From positions 1 through 49,866 of the forward strand of contig JBDLTQ010000005.1 in assembly GCA_039805745.1 (NCBI GenBank): a stretch of 49,866 nucleotides of DNA. Reading direction: 5' to 3'. Below the pieces are notes generated by a model. It was given only the letters and a program-made list of their open reading frames with translations. It did not search any database and was not told the DNA's origin. Below are positions 1,025 to 42,005 of this stretch, in pieces (position 1 is the first letter of the stretch; each line of letters opens with the position of its first letter). Origin of the DNA: Candidatus Parcubacteria bacterium (GTDB lineage: Bacteria > Patescibacteriota > Minisyncoccia > Phycocordibacterales > UBA5272). The position numbers and the translations under genes are program-made.

Positions 1025-1321
1025 CTATTTAACTGCATCCTTAAGAGCTTTTGCAGCTGAAAACTTTGGAACCTTAGTAGCTGGAACCTTTACTGTTTCT
1101 CCAGTCTTTGGGTTACGAGCTTCGCGAGCCTTTCGTAGCTTTACAGAAAACTTTCCAATACCAGCGATAGCAACCTCATCTCCTTTTGAAAGAGTCTTGA
1201 TAATTGTATCGAAGAGTGTGTCTACTACTTCTTCAGCTTGTACTTTTGTTGAACCAAGTACTGCATGTACCGCTTCAACGAGTCCTGCTTTGTTCATATG
1301 ATGAATGTAATTAGGTAGCAT
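1025..1321 (-). CDS. hup: HU/IHF-family nucleoid-associated DNA-binding protein
   Basis: MNKAGLVEAV...GIGKFSVKLRKAREARNPKTGETVKVPATKVPKFSAAKALKDAV is a typical HU fold sequence with the beta-arm RNPKTGE. The ATG at 1321 has AGGA 5 nt upstream. An internal ATG at 1297 would give the canonical MNK start. Confidence 0.9.
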   Translation of the reverse strand: MLPNYIHHMNKAGLVEAVHAVLGSTKVQAEEVVDTLFDTIIKTLSKGDEVAIAGIGKFSVKLRKAREARNPKTGETVKVPATKVPKFSAAKALKDAVK

Positions 1322-1398
1322 GGTTTCCTAGGATCACACTACCTAAAAATAAATTTATTAAATCATCGCAAGCGTACTTTCGTACGATGGATAAAATA

Positions 1399-3287: not shown

Positions 3288-3316
3288 AAAGAGTGACGCC
3301 TACGGCGTCACTCTTT
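3288..3316. terminator. Bidirectional terminator between the TrmB-like gene and rny
   Basis: AAAGAGTGACGCC (3288-3300), loop TAC, GGCGTCACTCTTT (3304-3316). A-run before and T-run after. Confidence 0.7.
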
Positions 3317-3347
3317 TATCATAGCGCACATCTTTATCATATAGACA

Positions 3348-4865
3348 CTATCTTGCAAACTCAATGACACGTGATTCACGTATCACATGAATCTTTATCT
3401 CACCCGGAAAACGAAGTTCTTGTTCAATACGAAGAGCAATATCTCGCGCAAGATTACGCGCTTCCATATCAGAGACAAGAGAAGGGGAAACAAACACTCT
3501 AATTTCGCGACCAGCAGCAAGAGCGTATGCACGCTCTATGCCAGAAAATGCCAGCGCTATTGCCTCCAAATCTTCAAGACGTTTTATATATCGATCAACA
3601 GTATCGCGACGTGCTCCTGGACGACCACCAGAAATAGCATCAGCCACCTGGACAAGAACACTTTCAATAGTCTCATATGGATACTCTTCATGATGAGCCT
3701 GCATTGCAAGAATAACTCGTTCATCAACACTATACTTCATAAGAATCTTACGACCAATTTCAACATGAGTCCCTTGAACCTCATGGTCTACAGCTTTTCC
3801 TATGTCATGAAGGAGTGCTCCAGCTTTTGCAACATGAACATCTGCCCCAAGCTCATACGCCAGAACACCTGCAATATGAGCCATTTCAATAGAATGATCA
3901 AGCACATTCTGACCATAACTTGTACGAAAATATAAACGACCGATAATTGGAATAATTTCTTCTGGAAGAGAAAGAATACCCGTTGCAAGCACTGCTTCTT
4001 GTCCTTTCTTTTTCATAAAAACACCAATGTCTTTCTTTGCTTTCTCAATACATTCTTCTATTTTTGCCGGCTGAATACGTCCATCTTTTATTAGTATTTC
4101 AAGTGCGCTCTTAGCAATTGCGCGTCTCACTGGATCAAAACAAGAGATAACAATAGCATTTGGAATCTCATCAATGAGAAGTTCAACGCCGGAGAATCGT
4201 TCAAATGTCTTAATATTTCTCCCATCTTTACCAATAATCTTACCTTTTATCTCTTCATCTTCAAGAGGGACTGTTGCTGTTGTAAACTGAGAAACTTGAC
4301 TATTCCCGATACGATAAATAGCATTAACAATAATATCTCTTCCACGTTCTTCCAAACGAGCCTCCCCATCTCGTGCGAGTTTCAACGCACGAGATGCAAA
4401 ATCTTCTTCTGACTCTCTAGTGACTTGCTCTAAAAGCATGCACTTAGCTTCATCTTTAGAAAGAGATGCGATTGATTCTAATGCATTACCTACCTCTTTC
4501 TGTTGAGAAAGAAGTGTTTCTTTTATAGTTTCAAGCTCTTTTGATTTAGCTCTTATAAGCTCTGACTCATGAAGAAGAGACTGCTCACGCAGATGAAACT
4601 CTTTTTCTTTCGCATCAATACGCGATTCGTGCTTTTCTAAACGGTCTTCATTCTTTTTTAGCTCTTCACGAAGCACCTTAGCCCTAGAAAGAGCTTCGTC
4701 TTCTATTGCTCTTGCTTCTCGCTTTGCAATAAGAAGTTTTTCTTCTATTTGTGCTTCGATTGTTCCACGATGAGCAAGTGCCACATAGTGACGCACCACA
4801 TATCCTAAAGCGCCCCCAACAACAAAGATGACAGCGCCTTCTGCGAGAAGTACTGTAGTTTGCAT
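3348..4865 (-). CDS. rny: Ribonuclease Y
   Basis: N-terminal TM helix, long coiled coil, KH domain (GKIIGKDGRNIK), and HD domain (LLHDIGKAVDHE...HH). This is the typical RNase Y architecture. Confidence 0.93.
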   Translation of the reverse strand: MQTTVLLAEGAVIFVVGGALGYVVRHYVALAHRGTIEAQIEEKLLIAKREARAIEDEALSRAKVLREELKKNEDRLEKHESRIDAKEKEFHLREQSLLHESELIRAKSKELETIKETLLSQQKEVGNALESIASLSKDEAKCMLLEQVTRESEEDFASRALKLARDGEARLEERGRDIIVNAIYRIGNSQVSQFTTATVPLEDEEIKGKIIGKDGRNIKTFERFSGVELLIDEIPNAIVISCFDPVRRAIAKSALEILIKDGRIQPAKIEECIEKAKKDIGVFMKKKGQEAVLATGILSLPEEIIPIIGRLYFRTSYGQNVLDHSIEMAHIAGVLAYELGADVHVAKAGALLHDIGKAVDHEVQGTHVEIGRKILMKYSVDERVILAMQAHHEEYPYETIESVLVQVADAISGGRPGARRDTVDRYIKRLEDLEAIALAFSGIERAYALAAGREIRVFVSPSLVSDMEARNLARDIALRIEQELRFPGEIKIHVIRESRVIEFAR

Positions 4866-6054: not shown

Positions 6055-6831
6055 ATGCCTTCACTCTTTTACGTTCGTATATCCACAATTATCCTCCTGG
6101 CATGCCTGCCCGCAGGATACTCGATTGGCGCCTTAGCAGAAGGGAAATTCTTCTACGGCATGCTCTCTGTTGTGACAACTCTTCTCTTGATAGTCTTCGC
6201 ATTCTATCCGAAGGAAGTCTTGTCTTTTCTTGAATCTTTGACAAAGACAACTGTGGAGAGTGTTGCAAAGGTTTCACCCCACGTGATACGCCGAACAAAA
6301 AGTAGCAGCACCTTTATCAGCAACCAACTTGCTGTCAAACCCTTCTTTTGGCTTAGTGTGGCAGTGTTTGCCATAACTTTTGCCAGTATCTTTTTTGAAA
6401 AGGTCACCACTTGGGCCGTTCTCTTCTTTTTTGGTGTTGGAACCATTCTTATGGTGACACACTATAACAAATGGAGGGAAATCCTTGCTGTCATTGTTAC
6501 CTACAAAAAACAGGTGTGGCTTGGGTTGTCAGTTGTCTTTTTAGCAATTGCTGTAGCACAAGAATCACCGACGATGAGCTTGCTGTGTCTTGTATCTGGC
6601 ATTTGTGCAGTCATCACAATTACCAAGTGCTGGGGGCAGGTTGGTATCTTTTTTCGCACACTACTGTCTGGTGGTTACGGAAAAAGCACGCTGACAATCA
6701 GCGGTGCAGTGCTAATTCTGCTCATTGTGCTGTATCTGCCTATTTGGGACAACCTGAGGGAAGGACTCGGTGTGATCTGCGCACTACTTATTATTGCAAG
6801 CGTCATCTTCTTGACACCCAAAAGTAAGTAA
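6055..6831 (+). CDS. Polytopic membrane protein, unknown function
   Basis: The ATG at 6055 is preceded by AAAGGAGGG. There are about 7 hydrophobic segments. The ORF-track start at 5929 lies upstream of the promoter, so it is rejected. Confidence 0.7.
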   Translation: MPSLFYVRISTIILLACLPAGYSIGALAEGKFFYGMLSVVTTLLLIVFAFYPKEVLSFLESLTKTTVESVAKVSPHVIRRTKSSSTFISNQLAVKPFFWLSVAVFAITFASIFFEKVTTWAVLFFFGVGTILMVTHYNKWREILAVIVTYKKQVWLGLSVVFLAIAVAQESPTMSLLCLVSGICAVITITKCWGQVGIFFRTLLSGGYGKSTLTISGAVLILLIVLYLPIWDNLREGLGVICALLIIASVIFLTPKSK

Positions 6832-6844
6832 GCCCTGCTCACTC

Positions 6845-6878
6845 AAAAGCTGAACATATACTGTTCAGCTTTTTTTTA
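6845..6878 (+). terminator. Intrinsic terminator
   Basis: AGCTGAACA (6848-6856), loop TATAC, TGTTCAGCT (6862-6870), then T8 (6871-6878). Confidence 0.75.
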
Positions 6879-6940
6879 TACAAAAATACCATATAGATAG
6901 AAATCACTGTTCAAAAACACAAAATATTCGTAATAAAAGA

Positions 6941-7240
6941 AATAAAAAACCCTCTTGCATTGTAGATACGACAAGATAAGTCATATACACAATGCAAGAG
7001 GGTTCATACTATCCTACATAAGTACTCGTTTAAAAACAAACTGTGTAACCTTTATAATAGGGGAGAAGTGATATCACTTCTTGTTATCAAATGGATCACA
7101 TGGAGATGTTGTGTGAGTGCTCTAATAATTAGAACGAAGCACTCAACAAAATAAAGAACAAACATGGTAGAATCTGTGCGCAAAGTTTTATAACCCGATA
7201 ACGCACGGGTGAACGTTTTTGACTACGTCATCTACCCTGT
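6941..7240 (-). ncRNA. Candidate ~300-nt structured RNA, unit A (no family recognised)
   Basis: Minus-strand promoter at 7246-7274. Conserved 5' block TAAGGACAGGGTAGA...TCACCCGTGCGTTATCGGG...TCTACCA is shared with unit B. Ends in a 14-bp perfect hairpin (6950-6963/6989-7002) plus a U-tract. The track shows no ORF of 60 aa or more in this unit. Confidence 0.4.
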
Positions 7241-7245
7241 CCTTA

Positions 7246-7274
7246 ATGATACCCTTATTGTCTTTTATACGCAA
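7246..7274 (-). promoter_or_regulatory. Promoter of RNA unit A
   Basis: Minus strand: TTGCGT (7274-7269), 17 nt, TATCAT (7251-7246). Same geometry as unit B. Confidence 0.45.
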
Positions 7275-7283
7275 CAGCTTTCT

Positions 7284-7292
7284 TGTGGATAA
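7284..7292 (-). promoter_or_regulatory. Perfect DnaA box (TTATCCACA on the minus strand), 9 nt upstream of the unit A -35
   Basis: The plus strand reads TGTGGATAA, an exact 9/9 match to the DnaA box consensus. Confidence 0.5.
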
Positions 7293-7311
7293 CTTTTAAA
7301 AAACTACTAAA

Positions 7312-7604
7312 ATAAAAAACCCCTTGCTATCTATACGCGACAGGATGTCGTGGACAGATTGCAAGGGGTTTTTGAGAAAAGTTTGTACTATTCAGCGGTT
7401 TCACAACCTTGGTTTAGTTACAAACGATATAAAGAGCGATTCATGCAAACCTTTTTAGATTTATATATTGATTTGTATACGGACATCTTATGGTGATGTG
7501 TAATCCGTGAATAAAAGAGCAGTTTTGGTAGAGATTTGTGCGTTACACATAAGTGTCCCGATTAACGCACGGGTGAGCGTGTGTACGTCTTGTCTCTACC
7601 CTGT
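7312..7604 (-). ncRNA. Candidate ~290-nt structured RNA, unit B (paralogue of unit A)
   Basis: Promoter at 7610-7638. Same conserved 5' domain as unit A. Helices GGTAGAGA/TCTCTACC and GTGCGTTA/TAACGCAC. Terminator hairpin CCCCTTGC...GCAAGGGG (7320-7368) plus a U-tract on the minus strand. Confidence 0.4.
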
Positions 7605-7609
7605 CCTTA

Positions 7610-7638
7610 ATAATATAGCAGATGTCTCTTACATGCAA
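7610..7638 (-). promoter_or_regulatory. Promoter of RNA unit B
   Basis: Minus strand: TTGCAT (7638-7633), 17 nt, TATTAT (7615-7610). Confidence 0.45.
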
Positions 7639-7647
7639 GTACCTTTG

Positions 7648-7666
7648 TGTGGATAACTGTGGATAA
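7648..7666 (-). promoter_or_regulatory. Two adjacent perfect DnaA boxes, the proximal one 9 nt upstream of the unit B -35
   Basis: TGTGGATAA at 7648-7656 and 7658-7666 (plus strand). Minus strand reads TTATCCACA-G-TTATCCACA. Confidence 0.5.
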
Positions 7667-7773
7667 GTCTTTTATAGTTCTTTATTATTCCTTATGTAGT
7701 CTTCTGCTACGCTCTTATTATTGTCTTTTCATATCTCTTGCAATGTCTCTTTGGCTTCGATAGTCTTGTATAC

Positions 7774-8466
7774 ATGCGATTACATCGCTTCTATATACAA
7801 CAACCCCTTGGTGAAGGAATACTACGTATAGAGATACAAGAACTGATTCATCAGTGGATGCACGTGTTCCGCTATACAAAAGGCGATCACGTGCTTCTTT
7901 TTTCTCCCGACGCACCAAAAGATTATGAGTATGAAATTATCTCTGCAACAAAAAAAGAGGTTGTGTTGTCGTATATACAAACGATCCCTAACATTAATCC
8001 TCCTTCAAAAAAATCTCTTTTTATGGCTCTTGTCAAAAAAGATACTTTTGAAACAATTGTACGCCACGCAACAGAAATTGGTATCACTGATATATATCCT
8101 GTACTTTCCGCACGTTCAGAAAAGAAAAATATTAATTTTACACGACTGCAAACTATCGCAAGAGAAGCTTCTGAACAATCAGGAAGGGGTGTGGTTCCTT
8201 ACATACATCCAATCACATCTTTTTCTCAAGCGGTTATACATAGTAATGATGCACATATTATTTTTGATAGTACAGGATCCTCTCTTGCTGAGACTACACA
8301 GATAAAAAAAGAAGCGATATGGATTGGACCAGAAGGGGGATGGACTACCGATGAAATGGAAACTTTTACACAACTAAAAGTCACAATAGTGTCTTTAGGG
8401 GAAACAACACTTAAAGCAGACACTGCCGCTATTCTCGGTGTAGGAATCCTTATGAAATCACTTTAA
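7774..8466 (+). CDS. rsmE: 16S rRNA (uracil1498-N3)-methyltransferase
   Basis: MRLHRFYI... N-terminus and the C-terminal IGPEGGWT...LG..TLKADTA motif are typical of RsmE. ATG at 7774. Confidence 0.88.
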   Translation: MRLHRFYIQQPLGEGILRIEIQELIHQWMHVFRYTKGDHVLLFSPDAPKDYEYEIISATKKEVVLSYIQTIPNINPPSKKSLFMALVKKDTFETIVRHATEIGITDIYPVLSARSEKKNINFTRLQTIAREASEQSGRGVVPYIHPITSFSQAVIHSNDAHIIFDSTGSSLAETTQIKKEAIWIGPEGGWTTDEMETFTQLKVTIVSLGETTLKADTAAILGVGILMKSL

Positions 8467-31085: not shown

Positions 31086-34000
31086 ATGAATGGTGATGCA
31101 AACCAAGAAAAGAACGATTTTAGTATAAAAACTAGACCAGAATACAAAGAACCTTCGTATTCCACTCGAGACGTACAACATCCTGGGGTTTTTCGTCCTT
31201 TGAAAATCAACACACCCACTCATTTTGATATCAATCAACGTGTATTACGTAATGTTGGCGGAGAGTTACGACGTCCAGAAAAGAAAGAAGCTGTTGATCC
31301 TGCTATTCTAGAGCTTGGAAAACTTGCCCAAGAGGCAGGGATTACTATCGTTAGTGAAAACGGAGTTACTCGCATAGAGCTTCCAGAAGACACCTCTATC
31401 AACACCGAGCAAAAAAACCGCCTCACCGAAGAAAATGAGAAGCAAACAACCGAACTAAAAAATCTCCTTGAGAGGACACAAGAAGAGTTAGAAAAATTCA
31501 AAGCAGAAACATCTCTTTTAGAAAAAAATCAGGAATCAACCCTCTCTGCACTTGAAACACTAAATAAAGAATTTGCAAAGTTTGTTGCAGAAAAAGAAGC
31601 AAGTGAAAAACAAGCAGAAGAAAATCTCAAGAATAAAGATGCTGAGATCGCTACTCTAGCAGAACAAAATGCTACACGAGAACAAACGCTACACGCTGAA
31701 AAGAAAAAAAGTGAAGACGAGCTTACAAAAAAACTTCAAGAAGCGACAGTCACTGAAAAAATCCTTACCGACTTTATACCAACCTTTGGTACTTTTAGTC
31801 TTACTCACGAAAAAGCTCAGCGCCTTATCCCAAAACTATCTGACACAACAACACAACAAACCCTACAAGAGCAGGGTGGTTACTTATGGGACCTCGCAGG
31901 ACAGATACACGCAGGGGAGAATATCACACAACAAACCATTGATGATTTTAAAAATACATTAAAAACCTACGAAGCATCTCTCAAAGATATCGAGAATCGT
32001 ATAGATGAACAAGAAAAAAAAGCACAACAAGTACTAGAGAAATCACGAAGCCTCACACCGTGGACAGGGTGGCCTAAAAGCATTGAACTCATCAACAGAA
32101 AAGCTGACAGGAATAAAAATATTCATGCTAAAACATACTGGGAAATAACTAACAGCACAACAGGACTAAAACAAGAACTTACACCTATCGAAAGATGGAA
32201 TGATGTGAAGCTTGAATTTGATCGATCATTTAAAGAATATGAAAACTTCCTCAAACAAGACGAGTCCCTTCGTAAAATAGAACGCTACCCAGACCTTGTT
32301 AAAGCAAAAAACGCTATCATTACAGCTCTTTTTGAGCTTGATCCGGAGCGTGCACTTACTCTTGTGTCTGTACTTAACAACACACTAGATACTACAAAAA
32401 AAGCATGGGAAACCTTCAAAGAACTCGAGGCTAAAGAAAAGAAAAAGAGCGAAGAAGAAAAAGCAAAACAAGAAGCCCTCTCCAAAAAAATAAAACAACT
32501 CGAAACATCTCTTGATGAACTCACGACAATTATAGAGGGATCTTCTTTTAGCGCTGTAAGTGGAATCATAATCACCAACGCAGAAAAAGAGGCTATCAAA
32601 AAGAACATAAAATACGCGGAGAGACAGCTAGGGGAGGTGAAGCAAGCTCCAAATGATGGTGATATAGCAGATGTACAAAATCATGTTGACGCAATCACAA
32701 GCCAGATCAAACAAAAGCAAGATGCCACAAACGGTATCGAAAGAAAGAAGCAGACACAACCACGTTTTGTGCATCGCCCTGTATCTCTTAACACAAGAAT
32801 TGTAGTCAGAGATACAAATGGTACATATAAAGAAACCACCGTCGGTGAAGTAGAGCAGAAACGCGCACTCGATGAAGAAGCAAAGAAAGCCTCTATCATC
32901 GCATCTCAAGAAGAAGTGGTAGAACACTACTTTGCTGTCTTCAATAAAAATAAAAAAGGGTTCCTAGAAACCTTTATTCCAAAAGATCCGAACAATAACA
33001 ATGAGTGGTCAAGTCTTTCCGAAAAAGAAGCAGTGCTTGGTATTATACAAAACTACGAAACAGATATAACAAGCACAATTCTTCGACTCAAGGGACTTCC
33101 AGAAAGTATTGAGACCGCAAATCAGATCAACCAGCTTCAAGAAGAACTTCGCGTTATTGACGATCTTCGTCACCAAAAACTTACAAAAGAAGATTCTTTA
33201 AAGAAGTTTGTACAATCATATCGACCATCAGGTGACAAAAATCTTGAACATCTTAATAGCTACAGAAATACACCAAAGAAAAAAGGATTTTTTGCCCGTA
33301 TTGTTTCAAAAAAGAATACACCAAAAGAAGTACAAGAAGTAGACACACCTCAGACTCTGACAATAGGCACAGACGATACACATGCGCAGACAAGCAACAT
33401 GACGAGACCGTATATGGACGAAGAGATGCATACCGCTATTAAAGACAGGTTATCAGAAAAAGAACAAGGAAACCTTACTATTACAACCAAAGATCAGCAA
33501 CTTGCTCACACACTTCCAGTAGAAGCAGTAAGAGAGCAGGAACCTTTGACTACAGAACAAGTTCAACCAACGCCTTCGCAAGAAACCGAAGAAAACACCA
33601 CCCCTGACACCACAACACCTCTACACACACCTGAAGAAGCAGGTAATCCAAGCACCACTCAAGAAACGACTCTAGAGACAACACCTGAAGCAACAAACCA
33701 AGAAGAGCCACAACCAGAAACCCCTACACAAGCAGTAGCTCCGTCTCCAGAATCATCAGAGGAACGTGCGCGGAAACTACAAGCTATCGACCGTCTCACA
33801 AGCACACTTCGCAGTGAAAAAACAAAAAACTGGGCATCTATTCTTGCACTCGCCGGAGCAGGCTTAACCCTTATGTATGGAGGTAAAGAGTTAGCACAAC
33901 ACATCCACGGAAAGAAAGAAGGGGTAACACTTAGCACTCTTGAGCAACTAGCTTCATGGAAAGACTTCTTCCAAACAGAGGAAGATAAACGTTGGTTACA

Positions 34001-34370
34001 CGATATACACGGCAGTACAAAACTAGGTTTTATCCCTCTTATGCAAAAATGGGCACCTGCTGTTGATATTAATAAAAATAATCCTGCAACGATTGTGGCA
34101 TTATCAGCAATGAAATGTGTTGAGCTTCTCAATAGTCATGAAATGGTCTACGGACTCAACAACACTCAGCGCGAGCAAGTCTGTCAAGTTGTCCGAAACC
34201 TAGAAAAAACAATTCAAGCAACTGATGCCAACAGAAGAGTAGATCCATCTTTCTCACAAAATCCATATTCCTACGCTGATTCTGCAATTACTGTATTTGC
34301 ATTTTATGACAAAGTGCAGGAAGCAATAGCGCAAGCGGAAAAACTAGAAGCTACACGTAAGAAAAAATAA
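31086..34370 (+). CDS. Giant coiled-coil protein (1094 aa) with one TM segment near the C-terminus
   Basis: GAGGTGA SD. About 900 aa of Lys/Glu/Gln-rich coiled coil, then a Pro/Thr/Glu linker. TM segment WASILALAGAGLTLMYGG (about 33832-33885), followed by a C-terminal domain of about 155 aa. Confidence 0.7.
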   Translation: MNGDANQEKNDFSIKTRPEYKEPSYSTRDVQHPGVFRPLKINTPTHFDINQRVLRNVGGELRRPEKKEAVDPAILELGKLAQEAGITIVSENGVTRIELPEDTSINTEQKNRLTEENEKQTTELKNLLERTQEELEKFKAETSLLEKNQESTLSALETLNKEFAKFVAEKEASEKQAEENLKNKDAEIATLAEQNATREQTLHAEKKKSEDELTKKLQEATVTEKILTDFIPTFGTFSLTHEKAQRLIPKLSDTTTQQTLQEQGGYLWDLAGQIHAGENITQQTIDDFKNTLKTYEASLKDIENRIDEQEKKAQQVLEKSRSLTPWTGWPKSIELINRKADRNKNIHAKTYWEITNSTTGLKQELTPIERWNDVKLEFDRSFKEYENFLKQDESLRKIERYPDLVKAKNAIITALFELDPERALTLVSVLNNTLDTTKKAWETFKELEAKEKKKSEEEKAKQEALSKKIKQLETSLDELTTIIEGSSFSAVSGIIITNAEKEAIKKNIKYAERQLGEVKQAPNDGDIADVQNHVDAITSQIKQKQDATNGIERKKQTQPRFVHRPVSLNTRIVVRDTNGTYKETTVGEVEQKRALDEEAKKASIIASQEEVVEHYFAVFNKNKKGFLETFIPKDPNNNNEWSSLSEKEAVLGIIQNYETDITSTILRLKGLPESIETANQINQLQEELRVIDDLRHQKLTKEDSLKKFVQSYRPSGDKNLEHLNSYRNTPKKKGFFARIVSKKNTPKEVQEVDTPQTLTIGTDDTHAQTSNMTRPYMDEEMHTAIKDRLSEKEQGNLTITTKDQQLAHTLPVEAVREQEPLTTEQVQPTPSQETEENTTPDTTTPLHTPEEAGNPSTTQETTLETTPEATNQEEPQPETPTQAVAPSPESSEERARKLQAIDRLTSTLRSEKTKNWASILALAGAGLTLMYGGKELAQHIHGKKEGVTLSTLEQLASWKDFFQTEEDKRWLHDIHGSTKLGFIPLMQKWAPAVDINKNNPATIVALSAMKCVELLNSHEMVYGLNNTQREQVCQVVRNLEKTIQATDANRRVDPSFSQNPYSYADSAITVFAFYDKVQEAIAQAEKLEATRKKK

Positions 34371-40355: not shown

Positions 40356-42005
40356 ATGAATATATTAAAATCTATGAAACACATTCTTCTCACAATTGCT
40401 TTTCTTGGAATACTCGCTCAACCAATACAATCACATGCAACGAGTGTTATCGGCGCAACAGAACCAACACAGCTTCTCAATCATGCTGAACTTATACCAA
40501 CAGCGATAGCAACCGTCGCGACCGAAATCAATACACTTACCGACATGACATGGAATACTATACTTGATCCGATTGCTAATGAACTTATCAATGTAACACT
40601 TGAAGACACCTCTGATGACATTCTCTCTTGGATACAAGGTGGGTATGGTGGTGATCAGCCACTTATTATAGAAAACCCCGATGACTACATCACCGAACAG
40701 GGGGATTTAGTGGTACGAGAAGCTCTCACCGCTGTTCCAGAAGACAGTATTTTTGGTGAAAGTATCTTTGCTTCTATACTAGAAAGTAATAAAAAAACAA
40801 CACTCGAGGAAGAAATAGAGGCGATTAGTGATTCTCGTATTCCAGAACTTGTACAAAAAAATCTCTGCAACGAAGAATCTCTTTCTTCACAAACAGGAAA
40901 CTCTGAGGAAAAGCAAGAGCTCTATGACTACGCATGTAGTGGTGATCCGTCTGACCCAGAAACAGCAGCAAAACTCCAAGACCTCTACGAACAAGACCCT
41001 TCTGTTGCAGGGTGGGATGGGTGGCTAGCTATCACCGACGGAAGAAGAGCAGAGAATGAATATACAAAGAACACACTTGCCATAGAAACAACAGCAGAAT
41101 ACAAAAACAGAAAAGAATACCTTGAGGAACGAGGCCTCTACGATGGAGAAAACACCATCAGCCAGACAGAGTGTGTAGAAAAAGAGATTGATTTTATGGG
41201 GGAAGAATTTTGTGTTGAGAAAAAAACTATCTCACCAGGAAACAGTGTCCAAAACTATCTTGACCTCGCATCAACTGCAGGATTCCAACGTATGTTTAAT
41301 ATTGACGGAGGAGGGACAGGGGTTGGTATCTTATCTGGTTTCGCCATGAAAGCACTTAATGCTGGGCTCAGTAGTGCTCTTGCTACTATCAAAAGAGAGA
41401 TTACTTCATCATCAGGGGGGTCACTCACTAATACGACTTTTACACTCAACTCAATAACCCCTTCATCTCAAGATCTTCTTAATAACCCTTCAGCTAAAGC
41501 GTCTCTCTTATCAACTATGACTGCCCAGACAGAAAGAGACAAGGCTTCATTATCTGAACTCGAACAAATTGATAGAAATTATCTCTCTCTTGTAAATAAT
41601 TATGAAAACAAAGTCGCTCAGGTAAAGCAGTGCTACGACTCACTTGTAAGCAATAACCTTGTGCAAAGCACTGACAGTCGTGTTGTTACAGCTACAACAT
41701 TTTACAATAATAGAATGTCCACCATTAATGAAATTAAAAATACAATAGAAAAAGACACTGAAGCGATAACATCATCAAGGGAAGGAATAGCTGGGTTTAT
41801 CCAAAAAATACAAGCATCTAACTCAACAGAAGAAATTAATGCAATGTTTAGCTCTTACACATCAACAGTAAAAAGCCTTAGACTTAGCTCTGTTCTATCA
41901 GAACGAAAAGGGGAATACGCAGTACAGCAGAGCAACGTTTCTCGAGACACTCAACCAGAATCACTACTCCAAACTTGTAACAATATTCGAAACGGTAGTA
42001 ACTAG
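40356..42005 (+). CDS. Secreted hypothetical protein (549 aa)
   Basis: Signal peptide LLTIAFLGILAQPIQSHA. Starts 11 nt after the upstream gene. Confidence 0.65.
   Translation: MNILKSMKHILLTIAFLGILAQPIQSHATSVIGATEPTQLLNHAELIPTAIATVATEINTLTDMTWNTILDPIANELINVTLEDTSDDILSWIQGGYGGDQPLIIENPDDYITEQGDLVVREALTAVPEDSIFGESIFASILESNKKTTLEEEIEAISDSRIPELVQKNLCNEESLSSQTGNSEEKQELYDYACSGDPSDPETAAKLQDLYEQDPSVAGWDGWLAITDGRRAENEYTKNTLAIETTAEYKNRKEYLEERGLYDGENTISQTECVEKEIDFMGEEFCVEKKTISPGNSVQNYLDLASTAGFQRMFNIDGGGTGVGILSGFAMKALNAGLSSALATIKREITSSSGGSLTNTTFTLNSITPSSQDLLNNPSAKASLLSTMTAQTERDKASLSELEQIDRNYLSLVNNYENKVAQVKQCYDSLVSNNLVQSTDSRVVTATTFYNNRMSTINEIKNTIEKDTEAITSSREGIAGFIQKIQASNSTEEINAMFSSYTSTVKSLRLSSVLSERKGEYAVQQSNVSRDTQPESLLQTCNNIRNGSN

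Follow-up and report, generated by a model that had tools for sequence, protein, structure and literature searches.

A family of predicted structured non-coding RNAs with DnaA boxes in their promoters, present as two tandem paralogues beside rsmE in a Parcubacterium

The window analysed here, a 49,866-nt stretch of DNA from a Candidatus Parcubacteria bacterium (contig JBDLTQ010000005.1, positions 1 to 49,866), contains a gene-free spacer of 942 bp (6832-7773) between a membrane-protein gene (plus strand, ending at 6831) and rsmE. The minus strand of 6944-7666 holds two paralogous units in a 364-nt register, each composed of a predicted promoter, a transcript of ~295 nt without an open reading frame (ORF) and an intrinsic terminator, and in both the promoter is preceded by TTATCCACA, the established consensus DnaA box (PMC11317965). 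We propose that the units are two tandem paralogues of a new stand-alone, structured non-coding RNA (ncRNA) of about 250-340 nt under the control of DnaA, a reading to which we give a probability of roughly 0.7. Patescibacteria (the candidate phyla radiation, CPR) account for a large share of bacterial diversity and have tiny genomes with few recognisable regulators, and almost none of their RNAs have been studied experimentally.

Results

Two promoter-to-terminator units occupy the spacer

A first-pass annotation of this DNA had described two minus-strand units of identical architecture, with shared blocks and terminators, in a gap lacking any ORF of at least 60 amino acids (aa), and all of these sequence statements check out. 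Inside 6832-7773 there is no ORF of that size, and the sole one touching the spacer (7718-7918, minus strand, 66 aa) lies mostly antisense to rsmE. In unit B, TTATCCACA at 7666-7658 and again at 7656-7648 is followed by TTGCAT (7638-7633), 17 nt, TATTAT (7615-7610), TAAG and then GACAGGGTAGA from 7605; in unit A, TTATCCACA at 7292-7284 is followed by TTGCGT (7274-7269), 17 nt, TATCAT (7251-7246), TAAG and then GACAGGGTAGA from 7241. The architecture assigned to unit B thus stood, but not its start, which had been placed at 7638 and really lies at 7666 with the two tandem boxes. The blocks TAAGGACAGGGTAGA and TCACCCGTGCGTTA have two exact copies each in the 50-kb window, both in these two units only. 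The terminator stems are a perfect 14-bp stem (6950-6963 with 6989-7002) and CCCCTTGC...GCAAGGGG (7320-7368), with a T-run after each. Downstream of unit B lies unit A, and downstream of unit A lie a bidirectional terminator and the convergent membrane-protein gene. The features of the locus, with helices and motifs as described below, are:

7658-7666, minus strand: distal DnaA box TTATCCACA of unit B, about -61 to -53, exact consensus; the same position is boxed in two relatives (L025, L030)
7648-7656, minus strand: proximal DnaA box TTATCCACA of unit B, about -51 to -43; a box lies here in all 22 units with upstream sequence, in one with a single mismatch
7639-7647, minus strand: 9-nt spacer after the proximal box of unit B, a weaker box in many relatives
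7610-7638, minus strand: predicted promoter of unit B; -35 TTGCAT (7638-7633), 17-nt spacer with AAGAGACA (7630-7623), -10 TATTAT (7615-7610)
7314-7605, minus strand: RNA B (~292 nt); covariance model 81.6 bits, covariation
7605-7527, minus strand: 5' domain of RNA B; P1 7600-7595 with 7532-7527, P2 7585-7581 with 7548-7544
within this domain, minus strand: predicted pseudoknot 7580-7577 with 7568-7565, and P3 7573-7570 with 7560-7557
7521-7514, minus strand: CU-rich motif 1 of RNA B
7508-7479, minus strand: P4 of RNA B
7447-7431, minus strand: UGCAUGAAUCGCUCUUU of RNA B
7409-7397, minus strand: GNRA hairpin P6 of RNA B
7315-7373, minus strand: terminal hairpin and intrinsic terminator of RNA B, then a U-tract; 28-nt arms, 86% complementary, covariation
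7284-7292, minus strand: DnaA box TTATCCACA of unit A, about -51 to -43
7246-7274, minus strand: predicted promoter of unit A; -35 TTGCGT (7274-7269), 17-nt spacer with AAAAGACA (7266-7259), -10 TATCAT (7251-7246)
6944-7241, minus strand: RNA A (~298 nt); covariance model 92.1 bits, covariation
7241-7166, minus strand: 5' domain of RNA A; P1 7236-7231 with 7171-7166
7160-7153, minus strand: CU-rich motif 1 of RNA A
7144-7115, minus strand: P4 of RNA A
6948-7004, minus strand: terminal hairpin and intrinsic terminator of RNA A, then a U-tract; 25-nt arms, 88% complementary, perfect base of 14-16 bp, covariation
7751-7744 and 7729-7722, minus strand: two more copies of the promoter motif AARAGACA, flanking the rsmE -35 (TTGCAA, 7738-7743, plus strand) in a shared divergent control region

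The units and their gene neighbourhood are conserved in relatives

Related loci were collected by synteny, with RsmE homologues as anchors. The locus is present in identical form on two metagenome contigs, which therefore add no information; the RsmE proteins next in closeness are only ~59% identical, and loci were fetched at 59-46% identity. In the fetched loci the gene order is constant (RNase Y, ClpP, in some cases a small ORF, membrane protein, gene-free spacer, rsmE), and every spacer contains a promoter-to-terminator unit on the strand opposite to rsmE and divergent from it. An independent scan of public metagenomes with a pattern of RNA-internal blocks only, which did not select for the DnaA box, returned 14 loci, ten of them true (12 pattern matches) and four chance matches in coding DNA. 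The true loci all share the rsmE/clpP/RNase Y neighbourhood with RsmE identity down to 42-44%, and clpP and RNase Y remain downstream at loci whose RsmE is only 42-47% identical. When scored with a covariance model of the 5' domain, true units reached 51-102 bits, the chance pattern matches 21-25 bits and distant members at the syntenic spot 14-43 bits; the model also detected one further unit, in L028, that the pattern search had overlooked. Neither the covariance model nor block searches found a third copy in the window. A stricter promoter-plus-5'-end pattern run on GTDB genomes matched only one true genome and was too strict.

Altogether, the architecture of the window's units recurs in 20 other loci, giving 28 units in 21 distinct loci of Parcubacteria/Nomurabacteria-like Patescibacteria; the relatives are named 'Patescibacteria group bacterium' and 'Candidatus Nomurabacteria bacterium' (Parcubacteria group), and as far as seen the family is restricted to this clade. 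The homologues expected in related Patescibacteria are there, with paired segments conserved and no codon-periodic pattern. Two units are found in the window, L003, L007, L008, L028, L029 and L030, and one unit in L009, L012, L017, L024, L025 and the more distant L031-L035. Because the distant relatives have single units, the tandem duplication is confined to the subclade of the window. The proposal of a functional RNA duplication consequently stands for the presence of two paralogues but applies to that subclade only. The 3' halves do diverge between A and B, as had been noted, but this is not mere drift, since the 3' halves of the A and B types are each conserved among their own orthologues. 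In L007, the tandem units (3289-3431 and 3760-3902, minus strand) have identical promoters and 5' domains (~140 nt) but differ in their 3' parts, one of the A type and the other of the B type, which indicates gene conversion between the paralogues.

Known RNA families, coding frames and mobile elements

No match to any of the 4227 families of Rfam 15 reached the gathering score in the window, and 95 kb of related loci (11 loci) gave only one tRNA, in agreement with the suggestion that the RNA belongs to no known family. In Rfam sensitive mode, sub-threshold hairpin matches fell on terminators only and differed between the window and L012. The absence of tmRNA, RNase P RNA, signal recognition particle (SRP) RNA and 6S RNA signatures was likewise borne out: ARAGORN found no tRNA or tmRNA in the window, and 6S RNA, RNase P RNA and SRP RNA had no Rfam match in the window or relatives even at E values up to 10. 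These three identities require a stem closing the 5' end with the 3' end together with family motifs (the central bubble, GAGGAAAGUCC and the domain IV loop, respectively), and here both ends pair locally, P1 (positions 6-11 with about 71-79) taking up the 5' end and the terminator hairpin the 3' end. The position is not that of a riboswitch or other cis-acting leader, which would have a regulated gene downstream on the same strand; single-unit loci have this arrangement too.

Among 23 units, no conserved ORF was found on the RNA strand, lengths and sequences of the frames being inconsistent. Viral contigs, phage genomes and plasmids contained nothing similar; with no matches in these collections, no extra copies in the window and always the same chromosomal locus, a mobile or phage element was discarded. 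We found no CPR ncRNA and no DnaA-box-driven small RNA matching this RNA in the literature. Each unit thus has the attributes of an independent ncRNA gene, namely a predicted promoter of its own, a covarying G+C-rich hairpin with a U-tract as terminator, and a conserved position, together with the lack of a conserved frame.

Covariation supports a pseudoknotted 5' domain and a structured 3' part

RNAalifold on a plain MAFFT alignment recovered the invariant P1 only and the covariance-model alignment mis-registered variant forms, and we therefore built motif-anchored, N-padded segment alignments. Covariation in these alignments supports a predicted fold with P1, P2, an H-type pseudoknot, P4, P6 and a terminal hairpin of ~24 bp. 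P1, the GGTAGA/TCTACC pairing proposed earlier to close the domain, is invariant in the core clade as GGUAGA:UCUACC; it has the compensatory form GCAGU:ACUGC in the distant L033 and is extended to UAGAUUA:UAAUCUA in L031. P2 takes the forms CAAA:UUUG, CAUCC:GGAUG, UACAC:GUGUA, CACAU:GUGUG, CAAU:AUUG, AAUGU:ACAUU, AAAAC:GUUUU and CGGUU:AAUCG, and P3 the forms CCCG:CGGG, CCGA:UCGG, CCCU:AGGG, CCCA:UGGG, CCUA:UAGG and AUCG:CGAU. ACGC, directly 5' of P3, pairs with GCGU in the P3 loop (variants UCGC:GCGA, AGCU:GGUU, AAGC:GCUU and ACUC:GAGU), so that this pairing and P3 (CCCG:CGGG) are predicted to form a compact H-type pseudoknot. The CCCG:CGGG hairpin making the pseudoknot, like the identity of TTATCCACA with the DnaA-box consensus, goes beyond the first-pass annotation.

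In the 5' domain (25 distinct sequences), 94.3% of cells are paired compared with 25-43% when the partners are slid, 15 of the 19 pairs change on both sides, and the covariation of 0.371 exceeds that in shuffles (0.107; 0/500 reach it) and after sliding (at most 0.051). A second curated alignment, of the 3' part, has 89.3% of cells paired versus 27-47% slid, both-sided changes in 22 of 41 pairs, including every one of the 7 pairs of P4 and 13 of those in the terminal hairpin, and covariation of 0.321 versus 0.134 in shuffles (0/500) and at most 0.074 slid. Compensatory changes thus exceed the controls in both parts, in alignments that were curated and partly fitted. With 28 units in 21 loci, no Rfam family, no conserved ORF and strong covariation, the suggestion of a new structured RNA family of ~300 nt has held up, and we have little doubt that the family is real and absent from Rfam.

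On the 3' side of P1, every unit has a conserved single-stranded UUGUUCUUUCC, the hairpins P4 and P5 and then a conserved single-stranded UGCAUGAAGUUCUUU(UAUUAG). The P4 stems vary widely (GCGGAU:AUCCGC, GCAGAC:GUCUGC, GUAGGUC:GACCUAC, GAGUGCU:AGCACUC, ACGGA:UCCGU and others), and P6 is mostly AGGUU-GUGA-AACCU with a GNRA loop. The terminal hairpin of ~24 bp has the form CCCCU-UGC...GCA-AGGGG followed by U4-7, and one mismatch position conserved in its alignment represents a fixed internal loop. In the window (6948-7004 and 7315-7373, minus strand) and in all homologues this hairpin contains 1x1 internal loops at conserved positions and a conserved inner UGUG..CGAA/UUCG; it exceeds what termination needs and may serve as a substrate for an RNase III-type enzyme or as a binding site for a protein. 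In L021 (about 1310-1350, plus strand), L023 and L024 (about 7000-7040, plus strand), an extra hairpin lies between the CU-rich motifs, and its unrelated stems around the conserved loop UAAUCUUGU fit selection at the RNA level.

Two other pairings found no such support. The GUGCGU:GCGCAC helix put forward in the first-pass annotation came out best in a naive column scan and was acceptable in a set of 22 sequences, but failed the shuffle control once distant members joined: for GUGCGU(UA):(UA)ACGCAC, covariation is 0.201 versus 0.197 in shuffles, 202/500 of which reach it, and the helix is lost in L009, L031 and L033. The conserved partner of this loop is instead the upstream ACGC. The helix would occupy the loop that the pseudoknot uses; core-clade sequences can adopt it, and it is a possible alternative conformer, one that covariation does not support. 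Pairing of the conserved UGACGU with the P3 loop was no better than controls.

A DnaA box at a fixed position in the promoters

The three exact copies of TTATCCACA in the two units are the only ones in the window. The window and 15 true loci together span 163,808 nt, in which about 1.25 exact copies would be expected and 24 are present; 23 of the 24 precede a unit by 35-75 nt on the RNA strand. Counted from the G of GACAGGG, a box is at -51 to -43 in 22/22 units with upstream sequence, one of which has TTATCCCCA there and then GTTATCCAC; no feature of the locus is more invariant than TTATCCACA. A second, often weaker box, usually present 10 bp away, lies upstream, at about -61, in unit B, L025 and L030, or downstream, abutting the -35, as GTTATCCAC in L021, L023 and L024 and in the degenerate forms GTTAACCAC and CCTACCCAC in others. 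The distant loci L031-L035 share this promoter layout. A consensus box at a fixed promoter position across species is what a member of a DnaA regulon would be expected to have at the sequence level. The sole exact copy of the 164 kb away from the RNA promoters is in L030 (5978-5986, minus strand), beside a terminator hairpin where the RNase Y gene and a 239-aa ORF converge on a common 3' spacer.

The promoters are predicted to be of the sigma-70 type, and their -35 and -10 hexamers, the 17-nt distance between these and a second invariant motif are kept in all units. This motif, TAAAAGACA, lies inside the 17-nt spacer (AARAGACA, -25 to -17) and recurs directly upstream of the DnaA box (in distal 'A' units in the inverted form TGTCY) and around the rsmE -35. 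The copies in the window are at 7751, 7729, 7674 (partial), 7630 and 7266, all on the minus strand, and their spacings of 22, 55 and 44 nt are all multiples of 11. The pair on the rsmE side is kept in relatives as AAGAGACATTGCAA...GAAAAGACAA.

Neighbouring genes

The product of rsmE matches PF04452. The gene starts at ATG 7774, and an exact-protein look-up succeeded only with that start; TTG 7738, the start of the mechanically called ORF, is not the real one. The gene is apparently leaderless, with TTGCAA (7738-7743, plus strand), 17 nt, TAGTCT (7761-7766) and ATG 7774 just 7-8 nt past the -10, and its promoter in relatives retains TTGCAA...TAGAGT...ATG. Between the membrane-protein gene and RNA A, a perfect 12-bp hairpin (6845-6873) with A- and T-runs at its flanks constitutes the bidirectional terminator. 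In L003 (4707-7685), L007 (4711-6867) and L008 (4704-7122), all on the plus strand, an ORF of 624-898 aa without a Pfam match and a 92-aa ORF lie between rsmE and a DoxX gene; this insertion is missing from the window. Elsewhere in the window, the ORFs at 31086-34370 (plus strand, 1094 aa) and 40356-42005 (plus strand, 549 aa) have no Pfam match at E values up to 1e-5.

Discussion

The two units combine conservation, synteny, a covarying structure, the absence of coding potential and an association with DnaA boxes. From these we infer a model in which the units would be transcribed from promoters bound by DnaA and the RNA would act in trans on its targets. In many bacteria DnaA doubles as a transcription factor that activates or represses (PMC8203912), and it is probable, if less so than the existence of the family itself, that the RNA is under its control. 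In our model, DnaA occupancy of the box pair would set the rate of RNA transcription, by activation or by repression, and the RNA would act in trans by means of a folded 5' domain, a possible binder of a protein or ligand, and of two exposed pyrimidine-rich motifs, possible sites of pairing with RNA or of protein binding; the status of the replication initiator would thereby be coupled to another process. The 5' domain and the two motifs are likely to be the functional surfaces of the RNA, but any specific downstream mode of action is doubtful. Tiny CPR genomes retain, and sometimes duplicate, this large covarying RNA, and its role is therefore probably important.

Several considerations weigh against this model. 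E. coli DnaA prefers pairs of closely spaced boxes that are 2-3 bp apart (PMC11317965), whereas the tandem boxes here are 1 bp apart, and the consensus on which predicted DnaA binding is based was set in other phyla and may not be that of Patescibacteria DnaA. The presence of AARAGACA in the same promoters means that another factor may be the main regulator. The promoters, the starts near 7605 and 7241 and the termination are predictions. In the structural analysis, the register of P2 was picked from two options per sequence and P4 was anchored on per-sequence folds, while the terminal hairpin was anchored objectively on UGC/GCA; moreover, because the sequences are related, the shuffle control does not amount to a probability. 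Complementarity to the 5' end of rsmE (z from -1.6 to +1.2, at inconsistent sites) was not beyond that of shuffles, and a search of the window gave no convincing target of the CU-rich motifs. Finally, the strict linkage to rsmE could be frozen gene order and nothing functional.

Another idea is that the RNA is part of a housekeeping ribonucleoprotein or sequesters a protein. In this view it would be a lineage-specific counterpart of the 6S-, CsrB- and Y-RNA types, and its GUUCUUU repeats and long terminal duplex would titrate or scaffold a protein without any pairing to mRNA. This is an unlikely alternative to which several observations nonetheless lend themselves: the RNA is kept in very small genomes, sometimes in two copies, the CU-rich motif is present twice in single-stranded regions between hairpins, the conserved internal loops and inner sequence of the terminal hairpin go beyond the needs of termination, and neither the window nor the rsmE 5' end yielded a base-pairing target. 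The units lack, however, the 5'-3' closing stem and central bubble of 6S RNA, the GGA repeats of CsrB and any Rfam match, and no partner protein is consistently adjacent except RsmE, RNase Y and ClpP, whose linkage may itself reflect frozen gene order.

It is less probable still that the pseudoknotted 5' domain is a ligand-sensing aptamer and the whole a riboswitch-controlled ncRNA of the EutX/Rli55 or SreA kind, in which a metabolite would expose or hide a 3' effector. An aptamer would fit a fold that is compact, pseudoknotted and closed by P1 and in which the junctions and loops are highly conserved in sequence (GAUGACGU, ACGCUCA, UGCGUUAAU), and the two mutually exclusive partners of the P3 loop in the core clade would suit a switch, but the alternative pairing of that loop is without covariation support. 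Similarly, weak pairing is conceivable between the pyrimidine-rich motif past P1 and the purine-rich 5' strand of that helix, although it rests on invariant columns and many G-U pairs. Moreover, the 5' domain resembles no Rfam riboswitch and is followed directly by neither a terminator nor a start codon, and the same strand has no gene downstream.

We regard it as highly improbable that the locus is a DNA element of the DnaA system, that is, the chromosomal origin or a site like datA or DARS that titrates or recycles DnaA, with transcripts that are incidental or help to open the DNA. Perfect, invariant tandem DnaA boxes 10 bp apart, phased short direct repeats (AARAGACA), AT-rich stretches and a large gene-free spacer are reminiscent of such elements. 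Each locus has, though, only 1-3 boxes, which share one orientation and keep a constant distance to a promoter; GC skew remains negative across the spacer and to either side of it without inflection, the cumulative skew being monotonic over 50 kb; the 50-kb window contains neither dnaA nor dnaN; and there is no similarity to plasmids. These observations also led us to reject a plasmid-type origin. An element acting only as DNA would also leave unexplained the selection for RNA pairing along ~300 nt downstream of the boxes. The view that each unit is the mRNA of a very small protein (a type I toxin-like or leader peptide) with the structure as an untranslated region, to which an AUG at RNA position 11 after AAGGA and a second AUG in UGCAUGAAG after AAAGG in many units, and a hydrophobic 22-mer potentially encoded in L021, might point, is largely refuted, as the AUG-11 ORF has anything from 2 to 50 codons and its AUG is missing from unit B, the second AUG is AUC in a whole subgroup and its frame stops after 5-22 codons of unrelated sequence, and conservation follows blocks and base-pairing but not codon position.

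The DnaA-controlled structured ncRNA that we favour gives, through its box pair, the testable hypothesis that the replication initiator controls an RNA regulator. The fixed neighbours of the RNA gene are rsmE, RNase Y and ClpP. One may speculate, at rather long odds, that here, for the first time, transcription of an RNA gene is a direct readout of the replication initiator. This Patescibacteria-specific, pseudoknotted RNA would then be made in proportion to DnaA occupancy, feed back on replication or couple it to ribosome or protein homeostasis, and replace the protein cell-cycle regulators missing from these minimal, episymbiotic cells, with a 5' domain that may also sense a ligand. The family also provides a covariance-model target for annotating CPR genomes, and its pseudoknot domain of 76-79 nt suits structure probing and ligand or protein screens.

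Among known systems, EutX/Rli55 and SreA/SreB are riboswitch-controlled ncRNAs that have an aptamer-like 5' domain, an effector part and a terminator and no downstream ORF. The RNA described here similarly has a structured 5' domain, a 3' part, a terminator and no downstream ORF, but its 5' domain matches no known aptamer class and it has no intermediate terminator. With raiA, HEARO, OLE and other Breaker/Weinberg motifs in Rfam it has in common that it is stand-alone, intergenic, multi-helix, pseudoknotted, covarying, lineage-conserved and ORF-less, with a biochemical function that is not established; it differs from these in its lack of a match to Rfam 15, in its host phylum, the Patescibacteria, in its fixed place beside rsmE and in the DnaA box of its promoter.

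CcnA of Caulobacter (PMC8959179), EcpR1 of Sinorhizobium (PMC4414408) and the dnaA antisense RNA of B. subtilis (PMC12112137) are ncRNAs wired into replication or cell-cycle circuitry. They are shorter than the RNA of the window, are related to it neither by sequence nor by structure and act on known targets (ctrA/gcrA, dnaA/gcrA and dnaA, respectively), and a consensus DnaA-box pair at -35 is reported for none of them in these papers (PMC8959179, PMC4414408, PMC12112137). What the RNA of the window would share with them is a master regulator controlling a promoter, with a post-transcriptional output. Finally, compared with the DnaA-regulated promoters of dnaA, nrdAB, sda and gidAB-parAB (PMC8203912, PMC11317965, PMC13438810), the predicted one described here belongs to an ncRNA gene, has a box spacing of 1 bp and not 2-3 bp and comes from a Patescibacterium host, yet it resembles them in the presence of TTATCCACA by the promoter, in the combination of strong and weak boxes and in their direct orientation.

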